Virus record (IMG/VR): IMGVR_UViG_3300035498_000778
Location: 60,893-124,892 of that record
Length of the DNA: 64,000 bases
Origin: a virus
Taxonomy: Duplodnaviria > Caudoviricetes
Strand: one strand, 5' to 3'
The notes under the pieces were generated by a model. That model was not told where the DNA came from and searched no databases. It was given only the letters and a program-made list of their open reading frames with translations. Of this stretch, positions 4,132 through 64,000 are shown in pieces. Position 1 is the stretch's first letter; every line of letters starts with the position of its first letter. A program made the translations under genes and the position numbers.

Positions 4132-4186
4132 TTAATTCTTAAAAAGAACTGGGTTTGTATTCCAGTTCTTTTTTTCTTTTTTTAAA

Positions 4187-4198: not shown

Positions 4199-4246
4199 AA
4201 TTGAAGTGATATAAGTCATAGTTTTATTTAAATGGAGGATGATTAA

Positions 4247-5076: not shown

Positions 5077-5109
5077 GTGTTTGATGATGCTGCCGGACTA
5101 GATGACTGA
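5077..5109 (+). CDS. Possible 10-aa peptide MFDDAAGLDD
   Basis: Early motif at 5006, AAGGAGGT 6 nt before GTG, terminator hairpin at about 5128-5160. Confidence 0.35.
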   Translation: MFDDAAGLDD

Positions 5110-5160
5110 AAGTGTTAAATGTTGTCTAAAATAGAGATCGTTAAGATCTCTATTTTTTTT

Positions 5161-7604: not shown

Positions 7605-7705
7605 TATAAAAAGGAAGCATATTGCTTCCTTTCTTTTTTGTTAATATTTTATATACTAAAAACAATCTATTAAATATTTACTAAAAATTAATGGAGGTTG
7701 AAATC

Positions 7706-8224: not shown

Positions 8225-8236
8225 GAGGAATTGAAA

Positions 8237-16935: not shown

Positions 16936-17427
16936 ATGAAAAAGATGTTACTAATCGCTACTGGTGTGGCTGCAGTTGCTGCAACAGTTATTGCTTCTAT
17001 GGTAGTTATCAACAAGAAGAAAACACAACAAGTTGATACTATAGACGACGTATTCGAAGATATCGACGAATGCGTAAACTGCGGTGAGGATTGTCCTTGT
17101 TATGATGAGTGCGACTGCGACGTTACTGAGGACAACATGGATGTAGAAGATGATACAACTGAGGATGAAACATCTGAAGAAAATACATCTGAAGATGATA
17201 CAACTGAGGATGAAACATCCGAAGAAAATACATCTGATACATCTGACGATTCCGAGGATACATCTGAAGATAGTTCAATAATACGTGACAAAGACGCTTT
17301 TAAGGAGTTAGTATTATTGGCGTTAAAAGAATTATCTGAAGATGGTTCAATAATACGTGACAAAGACGCTTTTAAGGAGTTACTAGCATTGGTGGCAAAT
17401 GACATAAAGGTAGCCAATAACGAATAA
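16936..17427 (+). CDS. Membrane-anchored acidic Cys-cluster protein, copy 1
   Basis: N-terminal TM, CVNCGEDCPCYDECDC, internal repeats EDDTTEDETSEENTS x2 and SED.SIIRDKDAFKEL x2. Confidence 0.75.
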   Translation: MKKMLLIATGVAAVAATVIASMVVINKKKTQQVDTIDDVFEDIDECVNCGEDCPCYDECDCDVTEDNMDVEDDTTEDETSEENTSEDDTTEDETSEENTSDTSDDSEDTSEDSSIIRDKDAFKELVLLALKELSEDGSIIRDKDAFKELLALVANDIKVANNE

Positions 17428-17529: not shown

Positions 17530-18282
17530 ATGAAAAAGATGTTACTAATCACCGCTGGTGTAGCTGCAGTTGCTGCAACAGTTATTGCTTCTATGGTAGA
17601 TATCAACAAGAAGAGAACACAACAAGTTGATACTATAGATGACACATTCGAAGATATCAACGAATGTATAAACTGCGAGGATTGTCCTCATCATGATGAG
17701 TGTGGCGTTATTATTGAGGACAACATGGATGTAGAAGATGATACAACTGAGGATGAAACATCTGAAGAAAATACATCTGATACATCTGAAGACGACACTA
17801 CCGACATCAACGATGACAAGAATACAATCGACGTCAACCGCATTATGCCTAATGACTCTATGGTAACAGATTTTCTCGAAGCAAGAATGAATGCATCATT
17901 ATCCGAGATAGATGTTAACGACTACAATGGAAGAATGAATCACCCAGATGCTCAGGCATATTACAAATACAATAGTTTTGCAAATGCTGTCATCAAGCTT
18001 GCAATCATGCGTCGTCTAGATAACTACATGATATATGCGAATAATGAAAGCTTGCTACATCAAGGACCTACCATTGGTGATATAATAGAAACAGCTGCAA
18101 CTATATTCTACGTATCTGAAGATGGTAAGAATGTAGTGTGTGACCATGATGCCCATGAAAAGTTATTATTATTATACGGAGAGTTCGTAGTAGCTGCTGG
18201 ACATCAAAATGAGGTGGGTAATATTATAGTGACCGGAAAAGCATTCATGGATTGCATAAATACAGTCAATGACATTGAATAA
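17530..18282 (+). CDS. Membrane-anchored acidic Cys-cluster protein, copy 2 (different C-terminal domain)
   Basis: First ~85 codons near-identical to 16936; unrelated C-terminus. Confidence 0.75.
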   Translation: MKKMLLITAGVAAVAATVIASMVDINKKRTQQVDTIDDTFEDINECINCEDCPHHDECGVIIEDNMDVEDDTTEDETSEENTSDTSEDDTTDINDDKNTIDVNRIMPNDSMVTDFLEARMNASLSEIDVNDYNGRMNHPDAQAYYKYNSFANAVIKLAIMRRLDNYMIYANNESLLHQGPTIGDIIETAATIFYVSEDGKNVVCDHDAHEKLLLLYGEFVVAAGHQNEVGNIIVTGKAFMDCINTVNDIE

Positions 18283-18328: not shown

Positions 18329-19540
18329 TTATTTGCTTTTTTCTTTTAAAAATGCTTTAACTATTGTATTTATTATAAATAGTAATATTGGTGTTATGAA
18401 AAAAATCTCCTCACTATCAGCATTGTATAATATTTGATCTGAAAGTGTTAAATCGATATTATATATGCTGTCAATTTCTTTATTTAGATACTTCCTAATA
18501 AAATCTAAGTAAATATTATCACTCGCTTCATTTTTTCTTATAGTATTAACAAAGTCATGAGAAAATAATTCTCTGGCCGTTTTACTTTTATCACTTATAG
18601 GTAGATCCACAATAAAAACTGCAGGATCATACCATCTGGCAAAACAAGTCTCTTTTCTATACATAGCTGGATATAGTTCATATTTGAATTCTGTCAACAT
18701 TCTATTGTCAAGCTTTTCAAAATACCTATAAAAACTCTTTTCGTATTTCATTTTAGCTCTTGGGTCATTGATTTCAGAAGATAAAGAGATAGTATTGTAG
18801 CTGTTAGTATTCTCCAGTAATTTATGTCTATTTATAAATTCTACCTGTAGGGGATCATACAAAAGTCTACCCTCATTATCATGACCGAGAAAACAATTAT
18901 ATCGTTTATTGTAGTACATATTGATATACATTCCAACTATGTTGTCATACATTAATTTTATCTCTTTGAGCCTCGTTAGATATTCGTCTTTAATTATGCA
19001 GTTGTTCTCACTTCCTATATTCTCCAAAACACATGTAAAACTATCGTTAGTTTTCTGCTCTAAGAATCGGTACATTTCTTCATTGATAAACTCAAGTCTA
19101 TAGCTTATCTTAAAGAAGTTATCAGGTCTAATATCATCAAAATCTATAGCGGTAATTCTAAATAAAAATCTTTTACCAACAACGTCTATTATGAAGAAAT
19201 CATTAGGTAATGGTTTAATAGTATTTGGTAGTATGACCGCATCAGATTCATAAGAAGTATCCAACCCCTGATCCTCTGTTTGTAGGTTTGCTATTACTTG
19301 TTGAACACCATAGATTGGAAAGTTCTCAATCTTTTGATATCTCAATGGGCTTCTTGGACCGAGTAATGATTCAATGTCCTGATAGCCCGCATCCACGGTT
19401 GACTCATTATTAGATATATGAAAATATGTCGTGAATGTGGGCGTTTTATCCAAAAATCTAGTTAATTGAGATTTTATTCTATTCTCGTATATAAAAACAT
19501 TGTTATTAACCATGTTTTGCTCATTTATAAATTGTGCCAT
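18329..19540 (-). CDS. Virion structural protein (phiKZ/AR9-like)
   Basis: SPLRYQKIENFPIYG and ILPNTIKPLPNDFF resemble conserved jumbo-phage structural proteins; late motif at 19571. Confidence 0.6.
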   Translation of the reverse strand: MAQFINEQNMVNNNVFIYENRIKSQLTRFLDKTPTFTTYFHISNNESTVDAGYQDIESLLGPRSPLRYQKIENFPIYGVQQVIANLQTEDQGLDTSYESDAVILPNTIKPLPNDFFIIDVVGKRFLFRITAIDFDDIRPDNFFKISYRLEFINEEMYRFLEQKTNDSFTCVLENIGSENNCIIKDEYLTRLKEIKLMYDNIVGMYINMYYNKRYNCFLGHDNEGRLLYDPLQVEFINRHKLLENTNSYNTISLSSEINDPRAKMKYEKSFYRYFEKLDNRMLTEFKYELYPAMYRKETCFARWYDPAVFIVDLPISDKSKTARELFSHDFVNTIRKNEASDNIYLDFIRKYLNKEIDSIYNIDLTLSDQILYNADSEEIFFITPILLFIINTIVKAFLKEKSK

Positions 19541-19638
19541 ATTAAAATCTCCTTTCATAAGAATTGTACTTATATCTCTGTTCAACTTTAACCCTGAAAC
19601 AATATTATAACTATAACTTAGAAAAGGAGAGGTAATAA

Positions 19639-21096
19639 ATGAATAATATATTTATTAATAACATGATTTATGACCATGAGTTTAATTCTAAATTAGACCA
19701 GTATTTTATTGAAATGGTAGAGTATAGACATGACGAAGACGCGTACCCTGTAATGTTTGAATCTGCAATGGACGGTGTTCGTAAATTGATAGATAATTTA
19801 CTAGCCAAAGTTAAGAGCGTCATTGAAAAGGTGAAGGTATTTCTTTTTGGAGAAAAGGCAAAAAAGGATGAACAACAAACTGATGCTAAAGTTGAAAAGA
19901 TGGAAGAAGTGATATCTGAACATCCTGAAATTGGACAGCAAGAGGTAACGACTATCGATTCAGATAAATATGTAAAAGAATGTAGAAAATTACGCAAGCA
20001 AAATAAATTCACAGGAATAACAGATACACTTTTTAAAGCTTGTGCAGTGACTGGAACAGTGGCAAGTGTTATTATGATGTTTAAAAGTGGTAAAGTTAAA
20101 AAACAGCTTAAAAATGCAATGTCTGAGCTTGAACAGTCGAAGAATTCTATTACAAAGTTAAAAAGCGAACTAGATAAATCAGCTTCGGCTAATACAGCTT
20201 TATCCAGTGAGCTTAACAAACAAAAAACGACTAATAATGATCTTAAGACAAAGATTGCGGATCTCGAAAAACAAATAAGTGATAAGAATCAAGAAATAAC
20301 ACAACTAAAAAAAGACAATAAGAATAATCCTAGAATAACAGAGTTAGAGAATGAGGTTAAAGATTTGAAGACCCAAGTCAAAAATCTGACCGAAGAAAAT
20401 AAGGGTAACGTCACACGACTAGATACTGCAAAACACGAGAATACAGGTTTGAAGAATAACCTCAAAAAAAGTCAGGAAGAGGTCAATAATTTACATCAGG
20501 AAGTCTTAGACTTAAAAGGCAAGTTACAAACTGAAGAACAAAAGGTAGTCAGTCTAACAACAGAAATAGAGGGTCTCAAACGAATTGAGCAGCAACAAAA
20601 GACGATAGCGACCACTGGCTCTGCTAATAATATTAATGGTAAACAAGCTGCAAATAGTAGTGGTTCTACGAAGCCTGCACCAGCACCAAAGTCTAAAGAT
20701 GAAAAAGATACTGTAGAGAAAGATCATAAAGCATCACAAAATATGCGAGAATTAAAGGCTGCGCTTAATGCTCTTCGTAATAAGATAAAACTTAAAGATA
20801 ACGTCCGCATATCAGAATCGGTGAAATCGAGATATTTATGGTTTTTTAATGAAGAAAACTGCGGAAGAACAATGAAAAAGAGTCTCTCTGATGCCGAGTA
20901 TATAGAACTTGCAAATAGGATATCTTTAAAGACAAAAGCAAACAGTGAAGAAGAATGTAAAAACTTTGTAATAACAATGAAATATAACACTAAGGATGAT
21001 ATAAATGCTTTTATAAGTAGTAAACTTTGGGCTATCATTAGTAAATATAAAAATACTGTGGGAGCTGGAGGCAGTGGTTCTAAGCGTACGAAGTAA
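19639..21096 (+). CDS. Divergent member of the cassette family; putative internal head protein with long coiled coil
   Basis: N-terminus alignable to the family (MFESAMDGVRKLIDNL vs MCESVLDSIKTFFSNL; EHPEIG vs DNPKLG; hydrophobic segment followed by KxG). Confidence 0.7.
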   Translation: MNNIFINNMIYDHEFNSKLDQYFIEMVEYRHDEDAYPVMFESAMDGVRKLIDNLLAKVKSVIEKVKVFLFGEKAKKDEQQTDAKVEKMEEVISEHPEIGQQEVTTIDSDKYVKECRKLRKQNKFTGITDTLFKACAVTGTVASVIMMFKSGKVKKQLKNAMSELEQSKNSITKLKSELDKSASANTALSSELNKQKTTNNDLKTKIADLEKQISDKNQEITQLKKDNKNNPRITELENEVKDLKTQVKNLTEENKGNVTRLDTAKHENTGLKNNLKKSQEEVNNLHQEVLDLKGKLQTEEQKVVSLTTEIEGLKRIEQQQKTIATTGSANNINGKQAANSSGSTKPAPAPKSKDEKDTVEKDHKASQNMRELKAALNALRNKIKLKDNVRISESVKSRYLWFFNEENCGRTMKKSLSDAEYIELANRISLKTKANSEEECKNFVITMKYNTKDDINAFISSKLWAIISKYKNTVGAGGSGSKRTK

Positions 21097-21651
21097 TAGT
21101 ATATATTAGGTATATATGTGGTATATACCACATATATACATTTTTTACATTAATATAACCAATAATATATATAAGAAAGGATATGATGTATAATGGATAA
21201 TATTATATTAGAGAATATGTATTTTGAACATAATATAAGCTCATTAACAGATAAATATATTATAGAATGTTATGAAGATAGTTATATGTGTGAGTCAGTA
21301 TTAGATAGTATTAAAACATTCTTTAGTAATTTAAAAGAAAAGATAAAAGATATATTTAATAAGATAATAGCTAAAATAACAGGTAAAAGTAAAGAGAATA
21401 CAAATAAACTAAATGAAATAGAAGATAAGATTAAAGATAACCCTAAGTTAGGATTAGTTAAAGTACAAATAGCTGATCCTAATAAAGTAGAAGCAGAAAT
21501 AGATAAACAAAAGAAAGAATATTTAAATAATAAGAATAAAGAAAAAGGTAAGTTTAAAGTAGATAAGAAGAAAGTAGCTACCACAGCCACAGTTACTGTT
21601 ACATTAGGTGCAGCTGTAGTATTATTAAAGAAAGGTATAATAAAACTACCT
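21093..21651 (+). repeat. Cassette repeat unit 1: spacer with 30-bp perfect palindrome plus 459-bp constant coding region
   Basis: Near-identical to 22374-22928 and 24094-24637; constant part also at 63620-64000 (inverted). Confidence 0.95.
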
Positions 21652-22362
21652 GATGAAGTTCAGAAGATTCAAAAAAATGTAACTAGTACTATAGATAAAA
21701 ATAAAGAACAACTTGACAGAGAATATAATATGTTAAGGAATAATTACAGGCTTTTTGGTTATGATCACCCAGAGCAGCATAGTGATAAAGAAATAGAAGA
21801 TGCCCTTAAAAGAGAACAAAAAGTGTTTGGTACTAAGGGTGAACATAAGATGGAAGAAATAGAAGCTGAAGAAAAAAGGCTGAAGGAAATAGAAAGAGAG
21901 TCATCGGAAGTTGTACAAGCTGCACAAGAAGCCACAGTTATGAGATATGAACTTTTGCTTGAAGAATGTAATCGATTATTATCAGAAGCTCTAAACGCAA
22001 CATATAAGGCTGAGCGCATTAAAAAAGATGATTTGGAAGGGTTGTATGATACTGACAGTGTAGAAAAATTTGATAAGATTGCATCAGCTGCTCGTGATAA
22101 AATTGAACAAAATAAGAGTAAAATTGATTCAATAGAGGATAATTCATATAGCATGAGAGAGGACCGACGACGAAATATGGCTGAGATTCGTAGGAAAGCA
22201 GTGGACGATAGAGCAAAAATCATAGATGCTTATAATAGAGATCTTGATGAACTAGAGAAAAAATACCCTTCTCCAGATGGAAAGTCCGCTCCTAGACTTT
22301 CAAATATGAGACCTAGCAAGATTAAACTCAGTATGCCAGAAGATATCCCGAACAACGGGTAG
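21193..22362 (+). CDS. Cassette family member A (constant N-terminus, variable C-terminus), putative internal virion protein
   Basis: 153-aa constant region ending KKGIIKLP, then unique helical region. Confidence 0.85.
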   Translation: MDNIILENMYFEHNISSLTDKYIIECYEDSYMCESVLDSIKTFFSNLKEKIKDIFNKIIAKITGKSKENTNKLNEIEDKIKDNPKLGLVKVQIADPNKVEAEIDKQKKEYLNNKNKEKGKFKVDKKKVATTATVTVTLGAAVVLLKKGIIKLPDEVQKIQKNVTSTIDKNKEQLDREYNMLRNNYRLFGYDHPEQHSDKEIEDALKREQKVFGTKGEHKMEEIEAEEKRLKEIERESSEVVQAAQEATVMRYELLLEECNRLLSEALNATYKAERIKKDDLEGLYDTDSVEKFDKIASAARDKIEQNKSKIDSIEDNSYSMREDRRRNMAEIRRKAVDDRAKIIDAYNRDLDELEKKYPSPDGKSAPRLSNMRPSKIKLSMPEDIPNNG

Positions 22363-22373
22363 AGAGAAGTAAT

Positions 22374-22928
22374 AATAGTATATATTAGGTATATATGTGG
22401 TATATACCACATATATACATTTTTTACATTATTATAACCAATAATATATATAAGAAAGGATATGATAATATGGATAATATTATATTAGAGAATATGTACT
22501 TTGAACATAATATATCTTCATTAACAGATAAATATATTATAGAATGTTATGAAGAATCATACATGTGTGAAAGTGTATTAGATAGTATTAAAACATTCTT
22601 TAGTAATCTTAAACAGAAGATAAAAGATATATTTAATAAGATAATAAGTAAAATAACAGGTAAGAATAAAGATACTAATAATAAACTAAATGAAATAGAA
22701 GATAAGATTAAAGATAATCCTAAATTAGGATTAGTTAAAGTACAGATAGCTGATCCTAATAAAGTAGAGAATGAGATAGATAAACAAAAGAAAGAATATT
22801 TAAATAATAAGAATAAAGAAAAAGGTAAGTTTAAAGTAGATAAGAAGAAAGTAGCTACCGCAGCCACAGTTACTGTTACGTTAGGTGCAGCTGTAGTATT
22901 ATTAAAGAAAGGTATAATTAAACTACCT
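22374..22928 (+). repeat. Cassette repeat unit 2
   Basis: Palindrome GTATATATGTGGTATATACCACATATATAC at 22389-22418, then constant region. Confidence 0.95.
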
Positions 22929-23888
22929 AGTAAAGTTGAAAAGAGTAAAAAAGAAGTAAGTAATACAGTTGATAAATGTGAACAAAATGCTACTAAAACT
23001 GTAGAGAATAATAGTGATAATAAAGAAGAAGTTAAAGAACAACAACAAGAAGCGGCAGAAGTTACACAAGCTAATGAAGAAGCTGCAGCTGCCGAGTATG
23101 AAAGTATATTAAATACAATAGCTGAATTAGAACAGATAAGATATGATCATCATTTTGAAACCATGATGGCACAAACCGGTAACAAAAAAGAGGACGAAGA
23201 TCTCATGGAGAAAGACAGAGAATTTGCAGACAAAATCGAAGGTAAACAACTTGATCTGAAGATGAGTGCTAGTTATCATGGTCCTAAGAGGAAAGAGCTT
23301 AGAAAGAAACACAATGAACGCATGAAAAACATACATGATGACTACAGTAAAAAAACAATAGATACATTCTTTACTCCACCATCTGAGCCAAGGAAAGTAA
23401 TATCAAAAGAAGAAGCAGATGAAATAAGAAGCGAAAAACAGAGGGATGATCAGGAAAAAAGGGAAAAAGCTAGGCTACGAGATGAAGAAAACGCAGTAAC
23501 AGATAGGGTGTTGAAACGATATGAGGGCATTACTTCAAAGAAACTATTTAACACGTTTAAGGGATATGCTAAAAAGGAAATTCAAATAAATCAAGAATGT
23601 CTGGCAAACATACGTAGGGATGTTGAGAAATTCTATAAGAAGTACGGCCATATATCCAAAGATAGGTGTGATAAAATTGAGAAGCAATATATGAGCATAC
23701 GTTTAGATAAGTTACGAGTACTTTATAAGGATTATCCTCCATTTAAAGATATATTTAAAGAACGCGGAGATGATGAGTATTTAGAGTTATATGATGGTCT
23801 CAAAGATAAAGTGGCAACAAGCTGGACTGATTCATCTGTTCCACTACATAGGTTTATGGATGATATAGTTAAAAACTCAGAGAAATAG
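22470..23888 (+). CDS. Cassette family member B
   Basis: True start MDNII at 22470 after AAGAAAGG RBS; constant region plus unique C-terminus. Confidence 0.85.
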   Translation: MDNIILENMYFEHNISSLTDKYIIECYEESYMCESVLDSIKTFFSNLKQKIKDIFNKIISKITGKNKDTNNKLNEIEDKIKDNPKLGLVKVQIADPNKVENEIDKQKKEYLNNKNKEKGKFKVDKKKVATAATVTVTLGAAVVLLKKGIIKLPSKVEKSKKEVSNTVDKCEQNATKTVENNSDNKEEVKEQQQEAAEVTQANEEAAAAEYESILNTIAELEQIRYDHHFETMMAQTGNKKEDEDLMEKDREFADKIEGKQLDLKMSASYHGPKRKELRKKHNERMKNIHDDYSKKTIDTFFTPPSEPRKVISKEEADEIRSEKQRDDQEKREKARLRDEENAVTDRVLKRYEGITSKKLFNTFKGYAKKEIQINQECLANIRRDVEKFYKKYGHISKDRCDKIEKQYMSIRLDKLRVLYKDYPPFKDIFKERGDDEYLELYDGLKDKVATSWTDSSVPLHRFMDDIVKNSEK

Positions 23889-23891
23889 TTA

Positions 23892-24089
23892 ATGTATACC
23901 AAAAAAAGCGTTACTTCAGCTGTAGCTGTAGTATTACTAAAGAAAGGTATAATTAAACTACCTAGTAAAGTTGAAAAGAGTAAAAAAGAAGTAAGTAATA
24001 CAGTTGATAAATGTGAACAAAATGCTACTAAAACTGTAGAGAATAATAAAAATAAAGATACTAAAGAAGAAGTCCAAGTAATAATATAA
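23892..24089 (+). pseudogene. Internal remnant of a cassette family member
   Basis: AVVLLKKGIIKLPSKVEKSKKEVSNTVDKCEQNATKTVENN matches member B at DNA level; lacks spacer, RBS, N-terminus and variable domain. Confidence 0.75.
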
Positions 24090-24093
24090 TGTG

Positions 24094-24637
24094 GTATATA
24101 TGTGGTATATACCACATATATACATTTTTTACATTAATATAACCAATATAACCAATATATAAGAAAGGATATGATAATATGGATAATATTATATTAGAGA
24201 ATATGTATTTTGAACATAATATATCTTCATTAACAGATAAATATATTATAGAATGTTATGAAGAATCATACATGTGTGAGTCAGTATTAGATAGTATTAA
24301 AACATTCTTTAGTAATTTAAAAGAAAAGATAAAAGATATATTTAATAAGATAATAAGTAAAATAACAGGTAAAAGTAAAGAGAATACAAATAAACTAAAT
24401 GAAATAGAAGATAAGATTAAAGATAATCCTAAATTAGGATTAGTTAAAGTACAAATAGCTGATCCTCAAAAGGTTGAAGCAGAGATAGATAAACAAAAGA
24501 AAGAATATCTTAATAATAAGAATAAAGAAAAAGGTAAGTTTAAAGTAGATAAGAAGAAAGTTATAACAGTAGCTACAGTAACAGTATCATTGGCTGCAGC
24601 TGTAGTATTACTAAAGAAAGGTATAATTAAACTACCT
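24094..24637 (+). repeat. Cassette repeat unit 3
   Basis: Palindrome at 24094-24123, then constant region. Confidence 0.95.
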
Positions 24638-25486
24638 AGTAAAGCTAAACAAGCAGAACAGAATGTAACTAAAACTGTTGATAAATGTGAACAAAATGCT
24701 ACTAAAGCTGTAGAGAATGATAGTACTGATAAAACCACTGATGCTAAAGAAGAAGTTAAAGAACAGCAACAAAAAGCAGCAGAAACTGTACAGGCGGACC
24801 AAGAAGCTATTACTAAATATCGTAATGCACTAGACGTAATGTGGCTGAATATCAATAGATGTATAGGATATGAGAAATCACTGAACGATCCAGATATTAG
24901 TGAAAAGGAGAAGAAACATATTAAGGAAGAGCAATGGGTCAATTATAAATTGTTTAAAAAAGAAGAGACTGCGGCTCAAAATTTATATGATGAAAATAAT
25001 CCTGTTATGGTAGACTTAAAGAATAAACATCAGCTCTCTGATAAAACAAAATCCCTTATGGATGAAATTAAAAATAGGCACGATAAGGAGTGGGCTGAAG
25101 CTACGTATGCGTCAGAAACCGACATAGATAAACTTAAAACCATATTGGACGACATAGTTAAATTGTGCCCAAGAAGTGAAGAACTTTTCTATGCGAAGAG
25201 AGTACCGGATATTAGTGAATCTGATGAGAAACGCCTTCAAAACGAAGAAGATCAGATAAATAAGAAAATCGCTGAATTAGTATCTAGTGCTAAAGAAATA
25301 TTTAAAAGAGATAATAAAGAGATGGGACGACTTTGTTCAGACTATAATAGAAGCATAAAGGATATTAAAACAGAAATTGATAGCAAGTATAAACAAAAAT
25401 ATGGTTCAACATTAAAACCTGCTCCTTCCAACTTTGCTGCTAAAATGCATAGGGCATACCGATATTCATTAAAGGATCCAGAATAA
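24179..25486 (+). CDS. Cassette family member C
   Basis: Constant region plus C-terminus distantly similar to member D (SLNDPDISE / AQNLYDENNP). Confidence 0.85.
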   Translation: MDNIILENMYFEHNISSLTDKYIIECYEESYMCESVLDSIKTFFSNLKEKIKDIFNKIISKITGKSKENTNKLNEIEDKIKDNPKLGLVKVQIADPQKVEAEIDKQKKEYLNNKNKEKGKFKVDKKKVITVATVTVSLAAAVVLLKKGIIKLPSKAKQAEQNVTKTVDKCEQNATKAVENDSTDKTTDAKEEVKEQQQKAAETVQADQEAITKYRNALDVMWLNINRCIGYEKSLNDPDISEKEKKHIKEEQWVNYKLFKKEETAAQNLYDENNPVMVDLKNKHQLSDKTKSLMDEIKNRHDKEWAEATYASETDIDKLKTILDDIVKLCPRSEELFYAKRVPDISESDEKRLQNEEDQINKKIAELVSSAKEIFKRDNKEMGRLCSDYNRSIKDIKTEIDSKYKQKYGSTLKPAPSNFAAKMHRAYRYSLKDPE

Positions 25487-25615
25487 CTTTTTATTATATT
25501 AATAACATTTATATTAAGTAAACCATATGGTTTACTTAATATATTTTTAATTATATATTATAGACATGGAAGTATATAAACATATAGACCATAATATGGA
25601 GGTAATATAATATGG
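25483..25615 (+). repeat. 133-bp perfect inverted repeat, left copy (palindrome/terminator + early promoter + RBS + ATG)
   Basis: Base-for-base reverse complement of 62663-62795; contains a 34-bp perfect palindrome at 25510-25543. Confidence 0.95.
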
Positions 25616-26898
25616 CTAAGAAGAAGAAAACGTACATCGAACGATTAAACTGGGACGCAGAGTATATCAGAGATGTAATGTCAGGTGAAGGATTTAAAAT
25701 AACAGAACCAGCATCTGTTACTGTGGATAGTGGAAAGGAAAAGACCTTGTATGGTTTATACTCACCACTCTATGGTACAGACTACTCAGATGAACAGTCT
25801 TTCGTTGAAAGATACCATTGTGATTGTGGCTACTTTACAGGTAAAGCTTTCGAGGGCGAAGTGTGTCCTAAGTGCAATACTAAGGTTACTTATAAGGATA
25901 TAAATATTAAGTTTACTGGATGGATATCATTTGGTAGACATAAATTATTAAATCCTTATTGGTACAATGTACTTGACAAAGCACTGGGAACTGAATCTCT
26001 TAAAGGACCTGATGGTAAGTCCGTTGGTGGTAGAGTTAACATACTAAAGACTATTATTAACTCAAAACAGATGGTAGATATTAATGGTCAGACTGCTAGG
26101 TATGACGCTGATGCGATGAATGAGAAAGTATCACATCCATATGTAGGTATAGGTATGACGGAGTTGTATAATAGGTTTGATGAAGTACTACGCTATTTCT
26201 ATGACAAGAAACAAAACTCCAGACCTAAGATTAAGATGATAAAGGATGAAATACAAAAAGTATGGTGTACTAAGATTCCTATTTATAGTACATTCATGCG
26301 TCCAATGTCATCTACATCAGAGAACCTATACTACACACAAATGGACAAACAACTATCTCCTCTATTCACAATATCATTAAAGATACAAGATGCAGAGGAT
26401 ATAGAAGTTGACAACATGTTAACGCGTGCTCAAGAACGTCTTAATCAATACTGGGATATCAACTTCAGTTTGATTAATGGTAAGGAAGGTTGGATTAGAC
26501 AACAGATTGTAGGCGGTAGTTTAAATAACACCTCACGTAATGTTATTATACCTGACCCTACCTTACGTGAAAATGAACTTGCGTTATCATATCACACATT
26601 CATCGAATTATTTAAGTTCCAGATTATTGCATCACTACGTGATTACGGTGGTATGAGTTTAGCTGATGCTGACAAGCGCTGGAATGAAGCATACTACAAA
26701 TTCGACCCATTAGTATACGAAACTATGAATCAGATTATCAAGGAGAAGGAACCTTGTGTAATCATTAACAGAAACCCCACGTTAAACTATTACAGTATTT
26801 TACTGATGAAAATCAAACGCGTAAAACCCGACTTTAGTGATTATACGCTTTCGGTTCCCATAAGCATACTCGTGGGGCTTAACGCTGATTTTGATGGT
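25612..26898 (+). CDS. Non-virion RNA polymerase beta' N-half, exon 1
   Basis: Zn ribbon CDCG..CPKC, GKEGWIRQQIVGG, SRNVIIPDP, NRNPTL, LNADFDG; early motif upstream. Confidence 0.9.
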
Positions 26899-28677
26899 CC
26901 AAATGCTTAATTCATGATGCATGTATTGATTGAAATGTAAAATGGACGAACAATACAGTAAAAAGATAGGAATTAAGCGAGCAAGTTTTTGCCATCACTA
27001 AACCCTTTAAATTGCTGGAAGGACTTTATAACATATTGCTACAACGTGATTAGAAATGATGACCGTGAATGCTCTAAAAAGTATATGTTTTAGTCAATCA
27101 GCAGCCCGAATATTGAGATCTCAATTTATAATGATAACTTGCCACTCTAAATTTTATCTTTTAAAATATTCTAAGGAGGATTTAAAAATGAAAGAAATAT
27201 TTAAAGATGTGGTAGGTTATGAAGGAAAATATAAAGTATCCAATATGGGTTATGTTATATCTTCAAATGGAAAAATTGTTAAACCGTTTGCTGATAGAAA
27301 AGGATACTTAAGATGTTCTTTACACAACCCAAATACTATAAAAACCATTCATCGAATAGTTGCTACAGCATTTATACCTAATCCAGATAATAAGCCTGAA
27401 ATTAATCACAAAGATTGTAATACTGCTAATAATCGTGCAGATAATCTTGAATGGATGACTAGTAAAGAAAATAGCAATTACCGTGACAGTTTAGGTCACA
27501 ACAATCGTGTAAATGCTATTGAAGCGCATAGTTGTCCATGTGCTATTTATGACTTAGAAGGTAATTTGTTGTATTTATTTAAAAGTCATAAAGAGGCTGC
27601 AGTCTTACTAGATTTTGATGCCACTTACATTGGTCAAGCGTGCAAAGGTGTCAAAGCTACTTACAAGAACTTTATCTGGAGAGATGTTGATTATTGTAAA
27701 CCGTCTGAAGTATCAGATTATATTCAAAAAATGCATCTTGAAGATGGGTTGGATAAGGTAATGCAGAATCGACCATCTAAAGAACAGGAATGTGTTCAAT
27801 TATCAATGGATGATGTGGAACTAGCAAGATATAGCTCGTGTTCAGAAGCCGCAAGAGAATGTAAGTTAAGTGGTACATCTATAGCAAGAGTATGTAGAGG
27901 AGAACGTAATTCATATGCTGGTTTTAAATGGAAATACTCAGGTAATAGTAATAATGTGAAAAGTGTCAAATATGACATTACTAAGTATGTAGCTCGTTTG
28001 GACTCTTCATATAATATAGACAAAGTATACACCACTTGCAAAGAAGCTGCTGAAAAAAATAATATAAATCAATCATCTTTAAGCTCTGCGTGTAGAGGAG
28101 AATACTCAATGTGCGGAGGATATAGATGGAGATACGTTACTGCTGACGAACTATTGAACACTGGTTTACAGATACCTAATGATAATAGGGCATCATCAAA
28201 ACCATGTGCACAATACGATCCAGATACGAACGAACTGATTGATGTATATGTATCTTGTGTAGACGCAGGCAAAAGTGTTGGAGCAACTGGATGTAACATC
28301 TCAATGGCATGTAATGGTCAAATAAGCAAATCGCATGGATACAGATGGGAATATATAGATATGGATACCTATTATAAATTGAAGAAACAAGATTAAGGTT
28401 CATCGACTATCGAAACCAAAATACCAGTAGGAGAATATTTGGTATCTCCGAAAATGACTGTGAAGTCATTTGGTAAAATACGGAGCGTTGTGAAACGCAC
28501 TTAAGGAATTAGAGTACAGCCAAGCGGTGTGGTTGTGTGTAATAAGCACGTAATGCCACTTAAATGGAAATGTTGGGCACTATCCAAATAGTGAAGATAT
28601 AGTCACACCTTCTAGTGGAAGCTAGAGAAGTTCATAAGAGAACTGCGTGAGCGTAGCGAACTTGCGTGAAGATAGTG
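26899..28677 (+). mobile_element. Group I intron (IA-like) in RNAP beta' catalytic motif
   Basis: Exon ends in U and intron ends in G. IGS GCCATCA (26991) pairs with exon TGATGGT via G.U. Core elements P AAATTGCTGGAA, Q AATCAGCAG, R TCATCGACTAT, S GAAGATATAGTC. Splicing restores NADFDGD. Confidence 0.92.
27188..28396 (+). CDS. Intron-encoded HNH homing endonuclease (NUMOD4-HNH plus four NUMOD1-like repeats)
   Basis: KDVVGYEGKYKVSNMG; HRIVATAFIPNP..INHKD.NTANNRADNLEW...EN; four S..EAA...I..AC.G....G..W repeats; AAGGAGG RBS. Confidence 0.9.
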   Translation: MKEIFKDVVGYEGKYKVSNMGYVISSNGKIVKPFADRKGYLRCSLHNPNTIKTIHRIVATAFIPNPDNKPEINHKDCNTANNRADNLEWMTSKENSNYRDSLGHNNRVNAIEAHSCPCAIYDLEGNLLYLFKSHKEAAVLLDFDATYIGQACKGVKATYKNFIWRDVDYCKPSEVSDYIQKMHLEDGLDKVMQNRPSKEQECVQLSMDDVELARYSSCSEAARECKLSGTSIARVCRGERNSYAGFKWKYSGNSNNVKSVKYDITKYVARLDSSYNIDKVYTTCKEAAEKNNINQSSLSSACRGEYSMCGGYRWRYVTADELLNTGLQIPNDNRASSKPCAQYDPDTNELIDVYVSCVDAGKSVGATGCNISMACNGQISKSHGYRWEYIDMDTYYKLKKQD

Positions 28678-28848
28678 GATATTTTAAACATGATTGCACT
28701 AGTGGACGACTATGACAAACATTTATTCAGACGTTATGACCCACATACACGTATGATGATTAGTCGTGATACTGGTTTGCTAAATAAGGACTACGCAATA
28801 GCTAAGTCACAAATGATAGACCTATATTATTTCTGCACAATGGAATAA
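28678..28848 (+). CDS. Non-virion RNA polymerase beta' N-half, exon 2
   Basis: Begins DILNMIAL, completing NADFDG-D; DP..MMISR.TG; spliced product 485 aa. Confidence 0.88.
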   Translation, partial: DILNMIALVDDYDKHLFRRYDPHTRMMISRDTGLLNKDYAIAKSQMIDLYYFCTME

Positions 28849-28944
28849 CAAAAAGTATAGTTAAACAATATAGTAAAAATTTATGAGAAGAAGTTTTATA
28901 GACTTCTTCTCATATGTGAAATAAAATTAATGGAGGAATTTGTT

Positions 28945-29142
28945 ATGAAAGGATTAAGAGTTCTTGTAAATGTAAACAGTAATATTCTGTTCACCGAGGA
29001 TGAATATGACAACTGGAGTTATGATGGTACCTGCCTTATGATTGAAAAGGATGGCGGTTTGGTCGCACTTTACACCGTCAATAACATAATTGGCGCACTT
29101 AAGTGGGACGATGATGATACCAATAACAATAATGAATCATAA
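28945..29142 (+). CDS. Small hypothetical protein
   Basis: GGAGG RBS, late motif at 28864, terminator at about 29153-29185. Confidence 0.6.
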   Translation: MKGLRVLVNVNSNILFTEDEYDNWSYDGTCLMIEKDGGLVALYTVNNIIGALKWDDDDTNNNNES

Positions 29143-29196
29143 TACATATATAAATGAAGACTGACAATGTCAGTCTTCATTTTTTTATTTTTATAA

Positions 29197-32100
29197 TTAT
29201 AGAATTAGCGCACGTATATGCGTATCATCTATACGCTTGATCATGCGAATATTTGTTTTTTCTTCTGAGTATGTAGCAATACCGTTAACGGCTGTCACAT
29301 ACTTATTCTTTTTACATGTACCATCATCAATACATACAAGTTTACCTAAGAATCCAACCATATCCCATTCTGATCTATCTTTACGTGAAACATATTCTTT
29401 AGTTTCATCCCAGTCTGCACTTACCTTATCTACCATTCGGCTCCATTCCTCATACTTAACAGTACCGTCTTCATTATACTGAGCAGGGTATGTTACCTCT
29501 TCTTGTATAATCTTTCCAAAGATATCATGTTCATACTTGTCATGCCATTCATCATCGTAACAGTCACCTATTACTATTGGGTCTGATGATATAATACCTA
29601 TAATATCATCACCTTTATTAGCTAACTTCATCTTACTTTCAGAATATTCATCATCACTGTCTGATAAGGATACTAATAATCCTCTTCTATCATCATCCTC
29701 TGGATTACCATCTTCCCATTCCATATACTCAGCATAGTCGGCTGTACCAGATATAGTACCGTATATACTCTTAATATATCCGTACGCGAATGGATAAGAT
29801 TTTTCTCCAACATACGAGTTTGCAGAACCTGTGGTTATTCTTGATATTATAACCCCATTTCGCTGTATCTGAAACCCTTTTGTATCGTTTACACGATTTA
29901 ATATGAATGATCCGTCAGTGATATATGCGGAATGACTGTTAACCTTAAAATCTAGGTTAGCGTCTATTTCTGTCTTAGTTATTTCAAACGCGTTGGATCG
30001 CGTGTAGGTACTACTATCATTATATGTAGTCCATGTACCGTTTCCGACACTGAATATAGTTGAGTCAACCGTTGAGCTGTTAGCTTTACCTAAGGCTATT
30101 TCATATTGGTTAGTAGTCGTTAGACCTGTGCCAAAACAATAAGTTCGGTGGTTCGCGGGTGTATTGCATTGACCCATTACATAGTTGAGTGTGTATTCTG
30201 AACTATTAGAACAGCCCAATACATACGATCCTATATTATTATACTGGAGCCTATCAGACTTCGCATATGTAAACGAATTATTGAAACCTAAGATCATCGA
30301 ACCGTAACAAGTACTGCTATTATTTCCACCGTAAATTATAGAATATGGTGCTGTAACAGTATTATCATGACCTCCACATAAACAACTTGAGCTGTCTGAA
30401 TTTAAATTGTTAGACCAGCCCTCAACGATAGAATAAGGCGCGTCTACGGTATTATTATAACCCCCAACAATAGAATCCTTTCCACTCACAGTGTTTTCCT
30501 CACCAAACACAGATGTGTTGGTAGCATCAGATGTTAGACTGTTTTTGTAACCTCCAACAACCGTATTATTACCAGCACATGTATTACTATTTCCGTGTAC
30601 GAATGATCTATCACCGCTTGCAGTACAACCGTTACCACCAGCATGTGAATCTGTTCCTGACGCGGTGCATGATCCGCCTTCAACATGTGATCTTGCTCCG
30701 CTCGCAGTACCACCATTACCTTCTGCATGTGCTGATGAATTTGTCGCTTTTGTTCCATTACCTTCTGCATGGCTATTATTTCCACTCGCGGTAGTTTGAT
30801 AACCCTCCGCATGCGCTTGTGGACCGCTAACGGTACAGCTATTACCTTCAACATGAGCGTCCGCTACTGCATTGATTTTGTTATTGTAGCCTTCAGCATG
30901 TGAGTCTCTTGATGAACCAGTAATGGTATTATTATATCCTTCAACATGAGCACCGCTACTTGCACTATTGTCAATAACGTTCTGGTATCCTTCGACATGT
31001 GAGTAGGCGCCAAGTGTAGCAGTACTGGATCCTTCTGCATGTGAGTAATTACCAATCGCGTAATTTGCTGAATTATTAAATACTTCGGCGCCTGTGCCTC
31101 CGGTAGAACTAGCGATAGAATTAGAATTAATAGTTTTTGCACTGTAGCTATATCCTTCTCTTAAGTGGCCGACGCCATACAACTGACTATCAGAAAGTTT
31201 TATAGTGTCATTATCTATATAGCTACTTAAGTTTTTATTACTGAGCAATGTATACCATTCTGACCAAGTGGTGCTACCATTGGAACCACTGCCGCCTCTA
31301 TATTGTAAGCCGTTTGCACTAACTCCATTTGTAATAAATAGCTGCGCACCAAAACCTGCTGTTGTATCCCATCCGAATGTTAATATGTATCCATCACCCA
31401 TCGGTTTATTAGATGTCATAGAACTTGTCGCAACCATCAAACTTAATGATGACTTCTGTAATGTCGTCAAATACTCACTTACATCATTAGCGTCAGCCTT
31501 TCTATTATTACCACTGTAATAGTATGGAGATACAATATATTCATGCGTATGATCGCTGTCAGCTTTAGTATCAAGAGCATCGCATACAACCTTATTTTGG
31601 ATAGCGTTGGTACTTGAGTAGTCTAATGAACTATCGACTATTACTCTAGTCGCTCTATTCTCAATCTGGGATAATTTCGTCTTATCAGCAGAACTCATAA
31701 GACCATCTGAAATCGTAGTAGCATTATTATAAACATGGACTATGTAATCCGCCCATGCTGCCGTACCATCACCGGTACATAATAACATCTGTCCATCTTC
31801 ACCTCCACTTGGAATATGCATATATCCAGATGTCGTAGGATGAACATAGTTATTAGCGCCAGCCGCAATGCCGTCTAATTTAGTCTTATCACTAGAACTC
31901 ATAAGACCTGATGTGCTTGTGGTAGCTACACCGTAGGTCGTATCTGTTGGTATGACCCATGTACCGTCACCTCTTAAAAATGATGTCTGCTTACCCGCAG
32001 CTGGTGCTGGCACTAAACCACTTGTACCAGTACTACTTGATGTAGCACCAGTCATAACATCGTAAGTTATATTTTCAGAACCTGAGGTAATAGTACCGGT

Positions 32101-32532
32101 TGTACCATCACCCTTAGTATACGTTATAGTATTACCCGTAGCAGAGAGAGATTTAATGTATGTACTAGAAATCTCCTGTCCGTTACTATCGTTTGTTGCA
32201 CTAGTAGCTGATGTTGCGCTGGTTGCATTACCATTAAAAGCGGTTGCAGTAACAGAACCGGATACATCCAAACCACCGGATCCAACATGTACTACGCCTG
32301 TGTTGTTATTGATATATAGATCGTTCGCGTTGCTACCAGTACCTGATGAAACTGGTGTGTTACTTAAATCAGTATAACTACCAGAGTACGCTACGGTTTT
32401 GGTATCTGATATATACTTACTTATCTTACCCATCATTGTCTTTATACTTTCTCCAGAAGTAATATTACTTCTGGAGGTTGCTGTAGAAAATCCCACTGTG
32501 ATATCTACATCATTCATTTCTATATTAGCCAT
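29197..32532 (-). CDS. Tail fibre/adhesin with SHAEG beta-helix repeats and C-terminal peptidase G2 autocleaving chaperone
   Basis: GLMSS.DKTKLDGI fibre motifs, many (S/A)H(A/V)EG repeats, ADYAEYMEWEDGNP..DRRG. Confidence 0.85.
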   Translation of the reverse strand: MANIEMNDVDITVGFSTATSRSNITSGESIKTMMGKISKYISDTKTVAYSGSYTDLSNTPVSSGTGSNANDLYINNNTGVVHVGSGGLDVSGSVTATAFNGNATSATSATSATNDSNGQEISSTYIKSLSATGNTITYTKGDGTTGTITSGSENITYDVMTGATSSSTGTSGLVPAPAAGKQTSFLRGDGTWVIPTDTTYGVATTSTSGLMSSSDKTKLDGIAAGANNYVHPTTSGYMHIPSGGEDGQMLLCTGDGTAAWADYIVHVYNNATTISDGLMSSADKTKLSQIENRATRVIVDSSLDYSSTNAIQNKVVCDALDTKADSDHTHEYIVSPYYYSGNNRKADANDVSEYLTTLQKSSLSLMVATSSMTSNKPMGDGYILTFGWDTTAGFGAQLFITNGVSANGLQYRGGSGSNGSTTWSEWYTLLSNKNLSSYIDNDTIKLSDSQLYGVGHLREGYSYSAKTINSNSIASSTGGTGAEVFNNSANYAIGNYSHAEGSSTATLGAYSHVEGYQNVIDNSASSGAHVEGYNNTITGSSRDSHAEGYNNKINAVADAHVEGNSCTVSGPQAHAEGYQTTASGNNSHAEGNGTKATNSSAHAEGNGGTASGARSHVEGGSCTASGTDSHAGGNGCTASGDRSFVHGNSNTCAGNNTVVGGYKNSLTSDATNTSVFGEENTVSGKDSIVGGYNNTVDAPYSIVEGWSNNLNSDSSSCLCGGHDNTVTAPYSIIYGGNNSSTCYGSMILGFNNSFTYAKSDRLQYNNIGSYVLGCSNSSEYTLNYVMGQCNTPANHRTYCFGTGLTTTNQYEIALGKANSSTVDSTIFSVGNGTWTTYNDSSTYTRSNAFEITKTEIDANLDFKVNSHSAYITDGSFILNRVNDTKGFQIQRNGVIISRITTGSANSYVGEKSYPFAYGYIKSIYGTISGTADYAEYMEWEDGNPEDDDRRGLLVSLSDSDDEYSESKMKLANKGDDIIGIISSDPIVIGDCYDDEWHDKYEHDIFGKIIQEEVTYPAQYNEDGTVKYEEWSRMVDKVSADWDETKEYVSRKDRSEWDMVGFLGKLVCIDDGTCKKNKYVTAVNGIATYSEEKTNIRMIKRIDDTHIRALIL

Positions 32533-34068: not shown

Positions 34069-34208
34069 TTGGCTCAACTCCTTTTCTTTTTTAATGTTAT
34101 AAGAATGTTTCTTGTTGAAACTTTCCACTTATAACCATAAAAATAATTATATATTATATTTGTGTAAGAAAAACAAACATAATAAAAGATACTCGGAGGT
34201 ATAAAATT

Positions 34209-35018: not shown

Positions 35019-35053
35019 AATAAAAAGAGAGCATTGAGCTCTCTTTTTTCTTG

Positions 35054-62292: not shown

Positions 62293-62666
62293 ATCTCCAC
62301 GTCGAACAATCTAACATTATCTTTATTAGATTTCTTGGGCTTCTTGTATTTTATACCATTTTCCGCACACGCTTTTGCTAGTTTGTCTGTGAATTCCTTT
62401 TCCCTGCGTTCATAAGCACTCTCAGTTTCATATGAAATTGGCTCGAGATAATCCTCGATATACTCAATCTTAGGAGAGAAGTTTTTATTAAAAACAGACT
62501 TGTCATGATTGGCCAATTTCTCAATCAGCTCATCTAGTTTCTCTAAGTTTGCTATATCCTCTTCCGCAGTTAACTCAGGTCTGGTCATTATACTTCTGGC
62601 TAAATTTCTAAAAATGTATAGCCTATAGTGTAAATCATCCATTCCCTTTTTAGAACCAAATACCAT
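62289..62666 (-). CDS. Hypothetical protein, first gene after the right inverted repeat
   Basis: RBS and ATG are supplied by the repeat. Confidence 0.7.
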   Translation of the reverse strand: MVFGSKKGMDDLHYRLYIFRNLARSIMTRPELTAEEDIANLEKLDELIEKLANHDKSVFNKNFSPKIEYIEDYLEPISYETESAYERREKEFTDKLAKACAENGIKYKKPKKSNKDNVRLFDVEI

Positions 62667-62795
62667 ATTATATTACCTCCATATTATGGTCTATATGTTT
62701 ATATACTTCCATGTCTATAATATATAATTAAAAATATATTAAGTAAACCATATGGTTTACTTAATATAAATGTTATTAATATAATAAAAAGTTAT
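62663..62795 (-). repeat. 133-bp perfect inverted repeat, right copy
   Basis: Exact reverse complement of 25483-25615. Confidence 0.95.
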
Positions 62796-62797
62796 AC

Positions 62798-64000
62798 TTA
62801 TTTTTTATATTTATTAGCAATTTCCCTCTTGATATCTACCGTACGTTTACGAAAGGCTTCATTAAGGGCTATCATCTCAGGATTATTCCTATTATATAAG
62901 TCCGTTTTTTCATCATATAGTTTTTCCTGTTTTTCGGCAAGCTCTGAATGTTCTTTCTCAAGACGTTTTTTATCAGCTTCACTTGTATCTTGTAAAGCCT
63001 GTAAGAACTTAATCTCTGTCATTCTGTAACGTACCTTATATATTTCTTCTAGTACAGCTTTAAATTTATTAATCACAGATGCTGGTTCAAAGCTTTCTAT
63101 ATCCTTATTACGCTTATATAGGATACTTCTCATCTGAGGATTAGCATCGTTATATAAATTTTGGGAAGCGGTTATTAATTCTTCCTTTTTATCATTAATT
63201 TGCTTATAGCTTTTATTTAGCTTTTCTTTATCAGCATCACTTATATTCGGATCTTTCAGTGAAAATTTAATCTCACGAGATTGTTTTATCAATTCAACCA
63301 AGCTATCTGATATACTTTTATACTCGGCGGCTGCGGCTTCTTCATTAGCTTGTGTAACTTCTGCTGCTTTTTGTTGCTGTTCTTTAACTTTTTCCTTAGT
63401 ATCTTTATCTGTGTTATCATTATTAGTACTAGCATTATTTGTATTAACATTTTTAGTACTATTATTTGTAGTATTAGTATTATTATCTTCCTTAGTATTA
63501 TTACTTGTAGTATTAGAATCAGTAGTTTTATCACTATCATTCTCTACAGTTTTAGTAGCATTTTGTTCACATTTATCAACTGTATTACTTACTTCTTTTT
63601 TACTCTTTTCAACTTTACTAGGTAGTTTAATTATACCTTTCTTTAATAATACTACAGCTGCACCTAATGTAACAGTAACTGTGGCTGCGGTAGCTACTTT
63701 CTTAGTATCTACTTTAAACTTACCTTTTTCTTTAGATTTATTATTTAAATATTCTTTCTTTTGTTTATCTATTTCTGTTTCTACTTTATTAGGATCAGCT
63801 ATCTGTACTTTAACTAATCCTAATTTAGGATTCTTCTTTATATTTTCTTCTATTTCATTTAGTTTATTTGTATTCTCTTTATTCTTACCAGTTATTTTAC
63901 TTATTATCTTATTAAATATATCTTTTATCTTTTCTTTTAAATTACTAAAGAATGTTTTAATACTATCTAATACTGACTCACACATATAACTATCTTCATA
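62798..64000 (-). CDS. Cassette family member D (5' end outside window)
   Basis: YEDSYMCESVLDSIKTFF...KKGIIKLP constant region; B-like middle, Asn/Thr insertion, C-like tail. Confidence 0.85.
   Translation of the reverse strand, partial: YEDSYMCESVLDSIKTFFSNLKEKIKDIFNKIISKITGKNKENTNKLNEIEENIKKNPKLGLVKVQIADPNKVETEIDKQKKEYLNNKSKEKGKFKVDTKKVATAATVTVTLGAAVVLLKKGIIKLPSKVEKSKKEVSNTVDKCEQNATKTVENDSDKTTDSNTTSNNTKEDNNTNTTNNSTKNVNTNNASTNNDNTDKDTKEKVKEQQQKAAEVTQANEEAAAAEYKSISDSLVELIKQSREIKFSLKDPNISDADKEKLNKSYKQINDKKEELITASQNLYNDANPQMRSILYKRNKDIESFEPASVINKFKAVLEEIYKVRYRMTEIKFLQALQDTSEADKKRLEKEHSELAEKQEKLYDEKTDLYNRNNPEMIALNEAFRKRTVDIKREIANKYKK

Follow-up and report, generated by a model that had tools for sequence, protein, structure and literature searches.

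The window analysed here, a 64,000-nucleotide stretch of DNA from a virus of the Caudoviricetes, comprises the last 64 kb of the IMG/VR contig G000 (124,892 bp; CheckV completeness 52%). Between positions 19,639 and 25,486, it carries a tandem array of genes, most of whose products join a near-identical N-terminal module (N-module) to divergent C-terminal tails. These genes, of which at least eight copies are spread over three loci, probably represent a lineage-specific expansion of a diverged branch of phiKZ-type internal head/ejection proteins (PF12699) in an uncultured AR9-like jumbo phage, their front ends having been homogenised by recombination. As the module is homogenised by gene conversion and the tails evolve fast, the 'constant plus variable' appearance is probably explained by concerted evolution of a targeting module, and not by a dedicated cassette machine.

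Paralogous, processed and injected PF12699 proteins are already known to occur in variable number in phiKZ, SPN3US and their relatives; the locus is a variation on this theme, not a new system. The new elements are a short-leader subfamily with a predicted membrane-type segment, a strongly homogenised module that includes the regulatory spacer, and an apparent arrangement in two facing arrays plus a pair of copies that flanks a protease gene. If the assignment is correct, the locus extends the PF12699-type family to the AR9-like lineage and provides a clear example of a packaging/cleavage module that is held uniform by gene conversion while the tails diversify. It also offers a compact candidate targeting tag, consisting of leader and module, and a concrete predicted cleavage site (..MCE|SVLDSIK..).

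Members of the array family

The family comprises the following genes, the last three of which are located on the sister contig G001 from the same metagenome (lengths in amino acids, aa):

g1, 19639..21096, + strand: diverged paralog of 485 aa with an acidic leader, ..MFE|S, an amphipathic helix, a hydrophobic segment and a long coiled coil
g2, 21193..22362, + strand: 389 aa; constant N-module, C-terminus related only to that of the sister-contig copy c2b
g3, 22470..23888, + strand: 472 aa when read from the ATG in register with the other copies
Remnant, 23892..24089, + strand: 65 codons, covering the end of the hydrophobic segment and about 45 further residues, without a promoter or ribosome binding site of its own
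g4, 24179..25486, + strand: 435 aa; C-terminus homologous (34%) to that of the inverted copy
Inverted family gene, 62798..64000, - strand: truncated at codon 27 by the contig end
c2a, G001 3586-4719: family copy
c2b, G001 7455-8441: family copy
c2end, G001 101964 to contig end: family copy

Sequence comparison confirms the repeats that a first-pass annotation had placed at 21193, 22470 and 24179, with one remnant and an inverted copy at 62798. The family is larger than listed there, with g1 (19639) and the three genes on G001 as additional members. The first 153 codons of g2, g3 and g4 align without gaps, as does the inverted copy, and amino-acid identity is 88-95%. The annotation had equated the constant region with these 153 codons; the ungapped alignment stands, but the boundary is graded, since DNA similarity between the copies extends from about -100 to +507/+540, and for g3 versus g4 out to +615/+630.

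g1 shares 29-32% identity with the other copies in the N-module (E 4.7e-11 to the constant module), and orthologue-like proteins (P0010 and P0013) are present in other metagenomes. For g3, an alternative reading of 497 aa from position 22395 would place the start within a palindrome of the upstream spacer; a variant with one different residue occurs on a 13,142-bp JGI contig, and a contig of 9,624 bp also carries a family variant. The inverted gene is found intact on another JGI contig as P0100 (426 aa; 100% identity over 400 aa). The remnant corresponds to the 3' end of the constant part (95% match to 22875-23020) and is the relic of a lost cassette gene, recording cassette loss.

Relationship to PF12699 internal head proteins

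A search of the module profile against 1.84 billion representative proteins matched 71 proteins, about 60 of them unnamed metagenomic proteins of 260-450 aa that are collinear and carry the module at the N-terminus, so that the constant module also exists outside this phage; one of the proteins is encoded on a 290-kb contig. A set of 63 members was used for motif counts, hydropathy and a local hidden Markov model (HMM). The Pfam family most often matched across this set is PF12699 (phiKZ_IP), with six of the 63 members. Five of these matches are below the curated cut-off of 27 bits, and one protein, P0025, passes it with 30.2 bits; its residues 39-142, i.e., the constant module, align with profile positions 91-204.

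The local HMM, built from the 63 N-modules, was run on 112 open reading frames (ORFs) of cultured-phage loci. Gp096 of Bacillus phage AR9, annotated as 'virion protein', ranked at the top (E 1.5e-8; HMM positions 14-190). Gp54 of Salmonella phage SPN3US was matched with an E-value of 1.8e-4, and phiKZ gp93, gp95, gp96, gp162 and gp86 were matched weakly and in the same register; the matches align at the x-x-E site and the helix behind it. An hhalign comparison with AR9 gp096, which has only one homologue cluster and hence no deeper profile, gave 49% probability (E 1.8e-4). In Bacillus phage vB_BspM_AgentSmith, the family profile matches four tandem ORFs (genes 32-35) alone, and PF12699 picks the same four with 34-136 bits. 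Likewise, both profiles choose the same ORF in Staphylococcus phage MarsHill. Homology to undisputed PF12699 members is therefore found at the profile level and transitively, and the paralogs are multi-copy and clustered with head genes. The phiKZ-type link proposed in the first-pass annotation is thus backed by tests in addition to resemblance.

The position of the conserved glutamate points in the same direction. It aligns with E137|S138 of SPN3US gp54, where the mapped maturation cut yields (E)SLWDDIK (PMC10052503); the corresponding N-termini after Glu are (E)SVLDSIK in the window proteins and (E)SAWDSIK in P0025. On G001, a head-maturation protease gene (5109-5966; phrog_3014, E 3e-23) is located between two family copies in the order c2a, protease, unknown ORF, virion structural protein, c2b. 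Searches for the protease with Peptidase_S77 (PF03420) and phrog_3017 were negative, and phrog_3014 later identified it. A virion structural gene precedes c2end, and another (18329-19585, - strand; phrog_3013, PF24214) lies just upstream of the array in the window. The alignment and the position of the protease gene speak for the propeptide ending in MCE|S that had been suggested. The further suggestion that the constant part is a packaging module is largely borne out at the level of prediction; presence in the virion head is supported by the annotation of AR9 gp096 as a virion protein.

The best scores in a protein atlas (0.76-0.78), which are a lead only, point to PF12699 as well, and Listeria phage LPJP1 showed no more than a weak PF12699 touch. 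A candidate for homology by position was the structural protein g275 of phiR1-37, whose gene adjoins that of the RNA polymerase beta' N-half; it was rejected as unproven (HMM E 0.03-0.08; hhalign 4%). Upstream of the window, 7,659 nt before its start, a 280-aa ORF (G000 52392-53234, - strand) weakly matches PF12699 with an E-value of 0.003, at positions 91-119 and 292-358 of the profile. Judged by its size, this ORF may be the counterpart of AR9 gp096, i.e., a single-copy, segment-free relative of the array genes.

Anatomy of the constant module

The module begins with an acidic and hydrophobic leader, which places the Glu site at residues 22-62 across the members and comprises 34 residues in the window proteins. 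The glutamate is kept in 61 of the 63 members, in the context hydrophobic-hydrophobic-x-E|S/A/E/G. Behind it lie a long, Lys-rich amphipathic helix, an NPxL turn whose proline is almost invariant, a 'KV.V.D' strand with a conserved aspartate and a basic stretch that often reads KYRKQRN. Next comes a single, Lys/Arg-flanked hydrophobic segment of 19-22 residues (Kyte-Doolittle hydropathy of at least 1.6 in 57 of the 63 members), which is predicted to be a membrane-type segment (127-146 in the window proteins), and the proteins end in a charged helical tail. The membrane-anchoring role that the first-pass annotation had proposed for this segment is conjectural.

The AlphaFold model of the 180-residue module has a predicted local distance difference test (pLDDT) score of 82. 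The sole stretch below 50, residues 29-32, is located just ahead of Glu34, between the leader helix and the long helix. The isoelectric point changes from 4.1 in the leader to 9.8 in the mature N-terminal part that follows. Foldseek searches with two models, full-length versus BFVD and N-module versus PDB, gave no match at E<=0.001, with AR9 gp096 no higher than rank 24, and a sequence profile search of PDB returned coiled-coil noise only.

Recombination among the copies

The copies differ by 5-14% in DNA. The N-modules have synonymous divergences (dS) of 0.15-0.47 and omega values of 0.16-0.35; the C-termini, by contrast, have reached saturation and are past recognition at the DNA level. The four-gamete test fails for 240 of 465 informative site pairs, and none of 5000 permutations reached the observed value of the pairwise homoplasy index (PHI; p<2e-4), in agreement with the earlier proposal of recombination inside the constant region. 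Conflicting blocks of sites join g3 with g4 at codons 29-31 and g4 with c2a at codons 111-145; other blocks join g3 with the inverted copy or with c2a. c2a and c2end, although located at separate loci, are 99.8% identical over 514 nt. These mosaic site patterns show that gene conversion occurs among the paralogs.

A second lineage, consisting of P0008, P0009, P0011 and P0012, shows about 178 near-identical residues followed by mosaic divergent tails. The longest contig given for P0009 has 236,411 bp, as has that for P0011, and the two are most likely identical; P0008 and P0012 are on separate contigs.

Spacers and promoters

Three spacers precede g2, g3 and g4:

Spacer 1, 21094..21192, + strand: palindrome at 21110-21139, T-run, TACATTAATATA at 21146-21157 and a GGA-rich ribosome binding site; terminator-like
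Spacer 2, 22373..22469, + strand: palindrome at 22389-22418; 99% identical to spacer 1
Spacer 3, 24078..24178, + strand: palindrome at 24094-24123, T-run, TACATTAATATA and ribosome binding site; 71% identical in ungapped register

The perfect 30-bp palindrome that the first-pass annotation had described, together with a T-run and a ribosome binding site before each array gene, is present in exactly three copies (21110, 22389 and 24094; 0 expected) and folds as a 13-bp hairpin followed by U6. After the hairpin, TACATTAATATA sits 47-51 nt upstream of each array start codon. g1 has its own canonical AACAATATTATA at -41, and the palindrome is absent upstream of it. Early-type motifs (TATATATTAT) stand before other genes of the phage; none was found ahead of any family copy, where late-type motifs are located 41-51 nt upstream instead.

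The late (nvRNAP) promoter of AR9 type has AACA at positions -11 to -8 and TA or TG at the start site. The putative late promoter has the canonical AACA motif in g1 and TACA in the seven near-identical copies. The base at -11 is critical in AR9 promoters (PMC9209446). When AR9-type N6-TA motifs are counted upstream of ORFs versus in coding sequence, AACA is enriched 11.5-fold and TACA 2.4-fold, compared to 0.3-0.5-fold for CACA/GACA. The TACA-N6-TA variant proposed earlier is present at its place, but as a promoter it is a weak call, since the cassettes themselves account for part of its enrichment.

C-terminal tails

The tails had been described as largely unrelated, but this does not hold for all of them. 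Full-length comparison of the g4 tail with that of the inverted copy gives 34% identity (E 1.6e-29), and g2 and c2b have 31% identity over 137 aa. In g3, only the first 57-110 residues after the module are common with g4 and the inverted copy. In the wider family, unrelated classes of tails are found behind one N-module, and none of them resembles the window tails.

Structure prediction and searches on the variable domains, as the first-pass annotation had recommended, did not bear out its idea of anti-defence or host-takeover payloads. AlphaFold2 predicts long helices with low model confidence, about 40% of the residues are charged, and database scans of the tails detected no recognisable domain, including no enzymatic or inhibitor domain.

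Proposed route and alternative explanations

In the favoured explanation, each gene would be transcribed alone from a late-type promoter located behind the terminator hairpin of the preceding gene. The 34-residue acidic leader and the conserved module would then take the protein into the prohead, as its homology suggests, and the head-maturation protease would cut after Glu34, the residue that aligns with the mapped site of the homologue. The mature protein, with its basic helical N-terminal part, one hydrophobic membrane-type segment and a long charged helical tail, would be packaged with the DNA and probably ejected. Gene conversion keeps the 5' 500 nt and the upstream spacer near-identical, as the mosaic site patterns show, and the tails evolve fast and are partly swapped. 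Late expression, cleavage at Glu34, packaging and ejection are in each case predicted from the sequence.

Several observations weigh against an assignment to the internal head proteins. No window protein matches PF12699 directly, either in a Pfam scan (E<=0.01) or in a six-frame search of both contigs (E<=10). An hhalign comparison of the family with five aligned phiKZ internal head proteins gave no support (0.75%), nor did that of P0025 with the same five proteins. The link is therefore transitive and weak for any single protein, and the family is regarded as distantly branching from PF12699, short of plain membership. The P3 residue is Met, Tyr or Phe here, versus Ala, Ser or Gly for the SPN3US and phiKZ proteases. 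Canonical PF12699 proteins (phiKZ gp92-96 and AgentSmith 32-35) have long propeptides and lack a hydrophobic segment (maximum Kyte-Doolittle value 1.0-1.3); the branch departs from them in these two defining-looking features. The enrichment of the TACA variant is modest and partly owing to the cassettes themselves. Finally, c2a and an endolysin gene are divergently transcribed neighbours, and the hydrophobic segment and coiled coil of g1 show a weak match to 'hol-like' PHROGs (E 4.7e-7).

The last two observations fit the main rival explanation, in which the genes encode late membrane proteins of the infected cell and not virion cargo, such as holin-like proteins, factors in lysis timing, superinfection exclusion proteins or membrane anchors for prohead assembly. 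The single Lys/Arg-flanked hydrophobic segment, conserved in 57 of 63 members, would be expected of such proteins. Yet, holins are about 70-150 aa long and are encoded beside the endolysin, whereas the family proteins comprise 328-485 aa, exist as at least eight paralogs, and only c2a adjoins an endolysin gene, in divergent orientation. The PHROG match spans a generic membrane segment and the coiled coil only. Moreover, the N-module is related to PF12699 and to the AR9 virion protein gp096, the invariant Glu aligns with a capsid-protease site, and the prohead protease is encoded, next to virion genes, between two of the copies. A membrane helix is also compatible with ejection, as the processed ejection protein gp47 of SPN3US can carry one (PMC5694885). 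Membrane proteins of the infected cell are thus an unlikely explanation, although the strongest of those competing with the internal head proteins. Collapsed or chimeric assembly, which the first-pass annotation had named as a possible refutation, is very improbable. Both contigs stop inside a constant region of the family, and therefore assembly must have failed to pass through some copies, leaving the second array incomplete; but the copies differ by 5-14%, have distinct C-termini and upstream contexts, and g1, g2, g3, g4 and the inverted copy all recur on other contigs of the protein collection.

The array could also be a purpose-built cassette system, in which module and spacers serve as homology arms for swapping C-terminal payloads that are injected as anti-defence or host-takeover effectors. 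Each variable part is indeed flanked by conserved DNA, with the N-module on the 5' side and the spacer plus the next N-module, or a 136-bp inverted repeat (see below), on the 3' side. In g4 and the inverted copy, these flanks are 88% and 99% identical around tails of 34% protein identity. The remnant would document cassette turnover, the wider family has tails of unrelated classes after one N-module, P0008 is a mosaic of pieces that recur in P0009 and P0012, and the C-termini differ between related contigs. A precedent exists in T4 IPI, a packaged anti-restriction protein that carries a targeting leader. However, the tails are low-confidence long charged helices in which no enzymatic or inhibitor domain is recognisable, weakly constrained coiled coils are also expected to diverge fast, and homologous recombination between paralogs requires no special system. 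The payload and cassette-system ideas are speculation, and a purpose-built system is doubtful. Equally doubtful is a broader proposal, in which at least 60 proteins of uncultured jumbo phages would form an undescribed membrane-segment branch; its homogenised packaging module and conserved spacers would allow the C-terminal domains of the ejected proteins to be exchanged among paralogs and with co-infecting phages, and the proteins would insert in the host membrane as variable, host-specific takeover or anti-defence factors. If true, such shuffling would be the phage counterpart of the 'constant delivery module plus variable tip' evolution of polymorphic toxins.

Comparison with known systems

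PF12699 paralogs are processed and injected, occur in 2-7 copies per phage and have open roles (PMC5694885; bioRxiv 10.1101/2024.03.24.586471). In phiKZ, gp92-gp97, gp162 and gp163 form a tandem paralog array, like the genes described here, and are late head proteins, as proposed for the present family, with a family size that differs between phages. Their x-x-E motif (I/V-S-x-E in phiKZ) is also directly followed by an amphipathic Lys-rich helix. As inner-body proteins, they are injected with the DNA, their roles being open (bioRxiv 10.1101/2024.03.24.586471). However, the phiKZ paralogs share only 17-22% mutual identity and have pro-regions of 60-260 residues and no hydrophobic segment, in contrast to the 34-residue leader, the 88-95% identical N-module and the subsequent membrane-type segment of the window proteins.

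In SPN3US, 15 residues at the N-terminus are identical between the major ejection proteins gp53 and gp54 ('paralog family A'; PMC5694885). The mature N-terminus SLWDDIK resembles SVLDSIK of the window proteins and SAWDSIK of P0025. SPN3US differs by having two copies, propeptides of 124-137 residues, an A-x-E motif and no membrane segment, and the match is weak (E 1.8e-4 in the set of 112 ORFs). AR9 gp096 (268 aa), which matches the N-module best among the cultured phages, likewise has a leader followed by an amphipathic helix and a 'KV.I..DP.K' motif, and it has probable counterparts in vB_BpuM-BpSp and MarsHill; it is encoded in a single copy and has a short C-terminus without a hydrophobic segment. 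AgentSmith genes 32-35 (32588-38656), annotated as hypothetical, are bona fide members of PF12699 that stand in tandem amid virion genes. Their pro-regions comprise about 110 residues and end in A-L/M-E|G motifs, found near residues 110-125, and a membrane segment is absent.

In concept, the family also resembles T4 IPI-III and Alt, in which a short leader ending in hydrophobic-x-E is removed by the prohead protease from otherwise unrelated mature parts (PMC5694885). There is no sequence relationship, and a leader of 10-20 residues is the only shared part in T4, compared to about 170 codons plus upstream DNA here; the family is thus distinct from a T4-type capsid targeting sequence, where the leader is the sole common element. 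SPN3US gp47 is likewise packaged in the capsid and processed by the protease, has a predicted transmembrane helix in its mature part and is encoded at a highly variable locus (PMC5694885). Its helix is located at the mature N-terminus and not about 100 residues in.

Genome setting and adjacent features

The sister contig G001 (102,416 bp, completeness 42%) has only repeats in common with G000 at the DNA level. Over their first 107 bases, G001 and G000 are exact reverse complements of each other, and the two contigs are therefore most likely halves of one genome of about 230 kb. The junction (G001 1-126 versus G000 1-278) is located inside a direct repeat with a period of about 171 nt, in which G000 1-107 recurs at 172-278, and represents a second assembly break point. 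For metagenomics, it is a caution that both contigs break off within repeats of the array family.

The split multisubunit RNA polymerase genes show 22-29% identity to those of cultured phages and no DNA match, which places the phage, distantly, among the phiKZ/AR9/phiR1-37-like jumbo phages. The beta' N-half is 27.8% identical to that of AR9, 26.9% to that of phiR1-37 and 29.0% to that of Listeria phage LPJP1. By its RNA polymerase, AR9 is among the closest cultured relatives, and the late-promoter type is also the same. BLAST comparisons of the array, P0001, P0017 and P0009 with 50,697 GenBank phages, for near matches and at the protein level, gave no match. The same was true for IMG/VR scans with the remote members A5, P0022, P0018 and P0009 and for a scan of a genome collection with P0009. 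A metagenome scan returned solely L017, on a Bacteroidota chromosome, which was judged spurious.

The array and the inverted gene are each adjoined by one arm of an inverted repeat:

Left arm of the 136-bp inverted repeat (99%), 25480..25615: last 7 nt of g4, hairpin terminator, early-type promoter TATATATTAT, ribosome binding site and the ATG of the beta' N-half (25612)
Right arm of the same repeat, 62663..62798: directly downstream of the inverted family gene; serves a 125-aa ORF (62666-62289)

Each arm thus contains a hairpin terminator, an early-type promoter, a ribosome binding site and a start codon. The repeats bracket 37 kb with large tail-fibre-like genes at 29197-32532, 32554-34128 and 35054-39730, all on the minus strand. 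Judging from the orientations, the gene at the end of G001 and the inverted gene belong to a second array, which faces the first across these 37 kb in the opposite orientation and has the assembly gap inside it. The inverted gene would be the last gene of this second array, with the rest extending across the gap toward the G001 end. Together, the 136-bp repeats and the facing arrays could allow inversion of the 37-kb segment by homologous recombination.

The ORF of the beta' N-half (25612-26910) ends three codons past 'NADFDG', within the universal catalytic motif, and is directly followed by an HNH/NUMOD homing endonuclease gene (27056-28396). The break at the active-site motif looks like an insertion or intron; an Rfam search of 26700-29300 was negative for group I introns, and a downstream exon was not evident. 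Upstream of the array, a second pair of paralogs (16936-17427 and 17530-18282) shares a near-identical hydrophobic N-terminus (92% over 154 nt) and acidic repeats with a 15-nt period (TEDE/TSEE), and matches no family. A 547-aa ORF on the minus strand of the window (46220-47863) is made of 4-6 internal repeats of about 180 nt with 61-85% identity.

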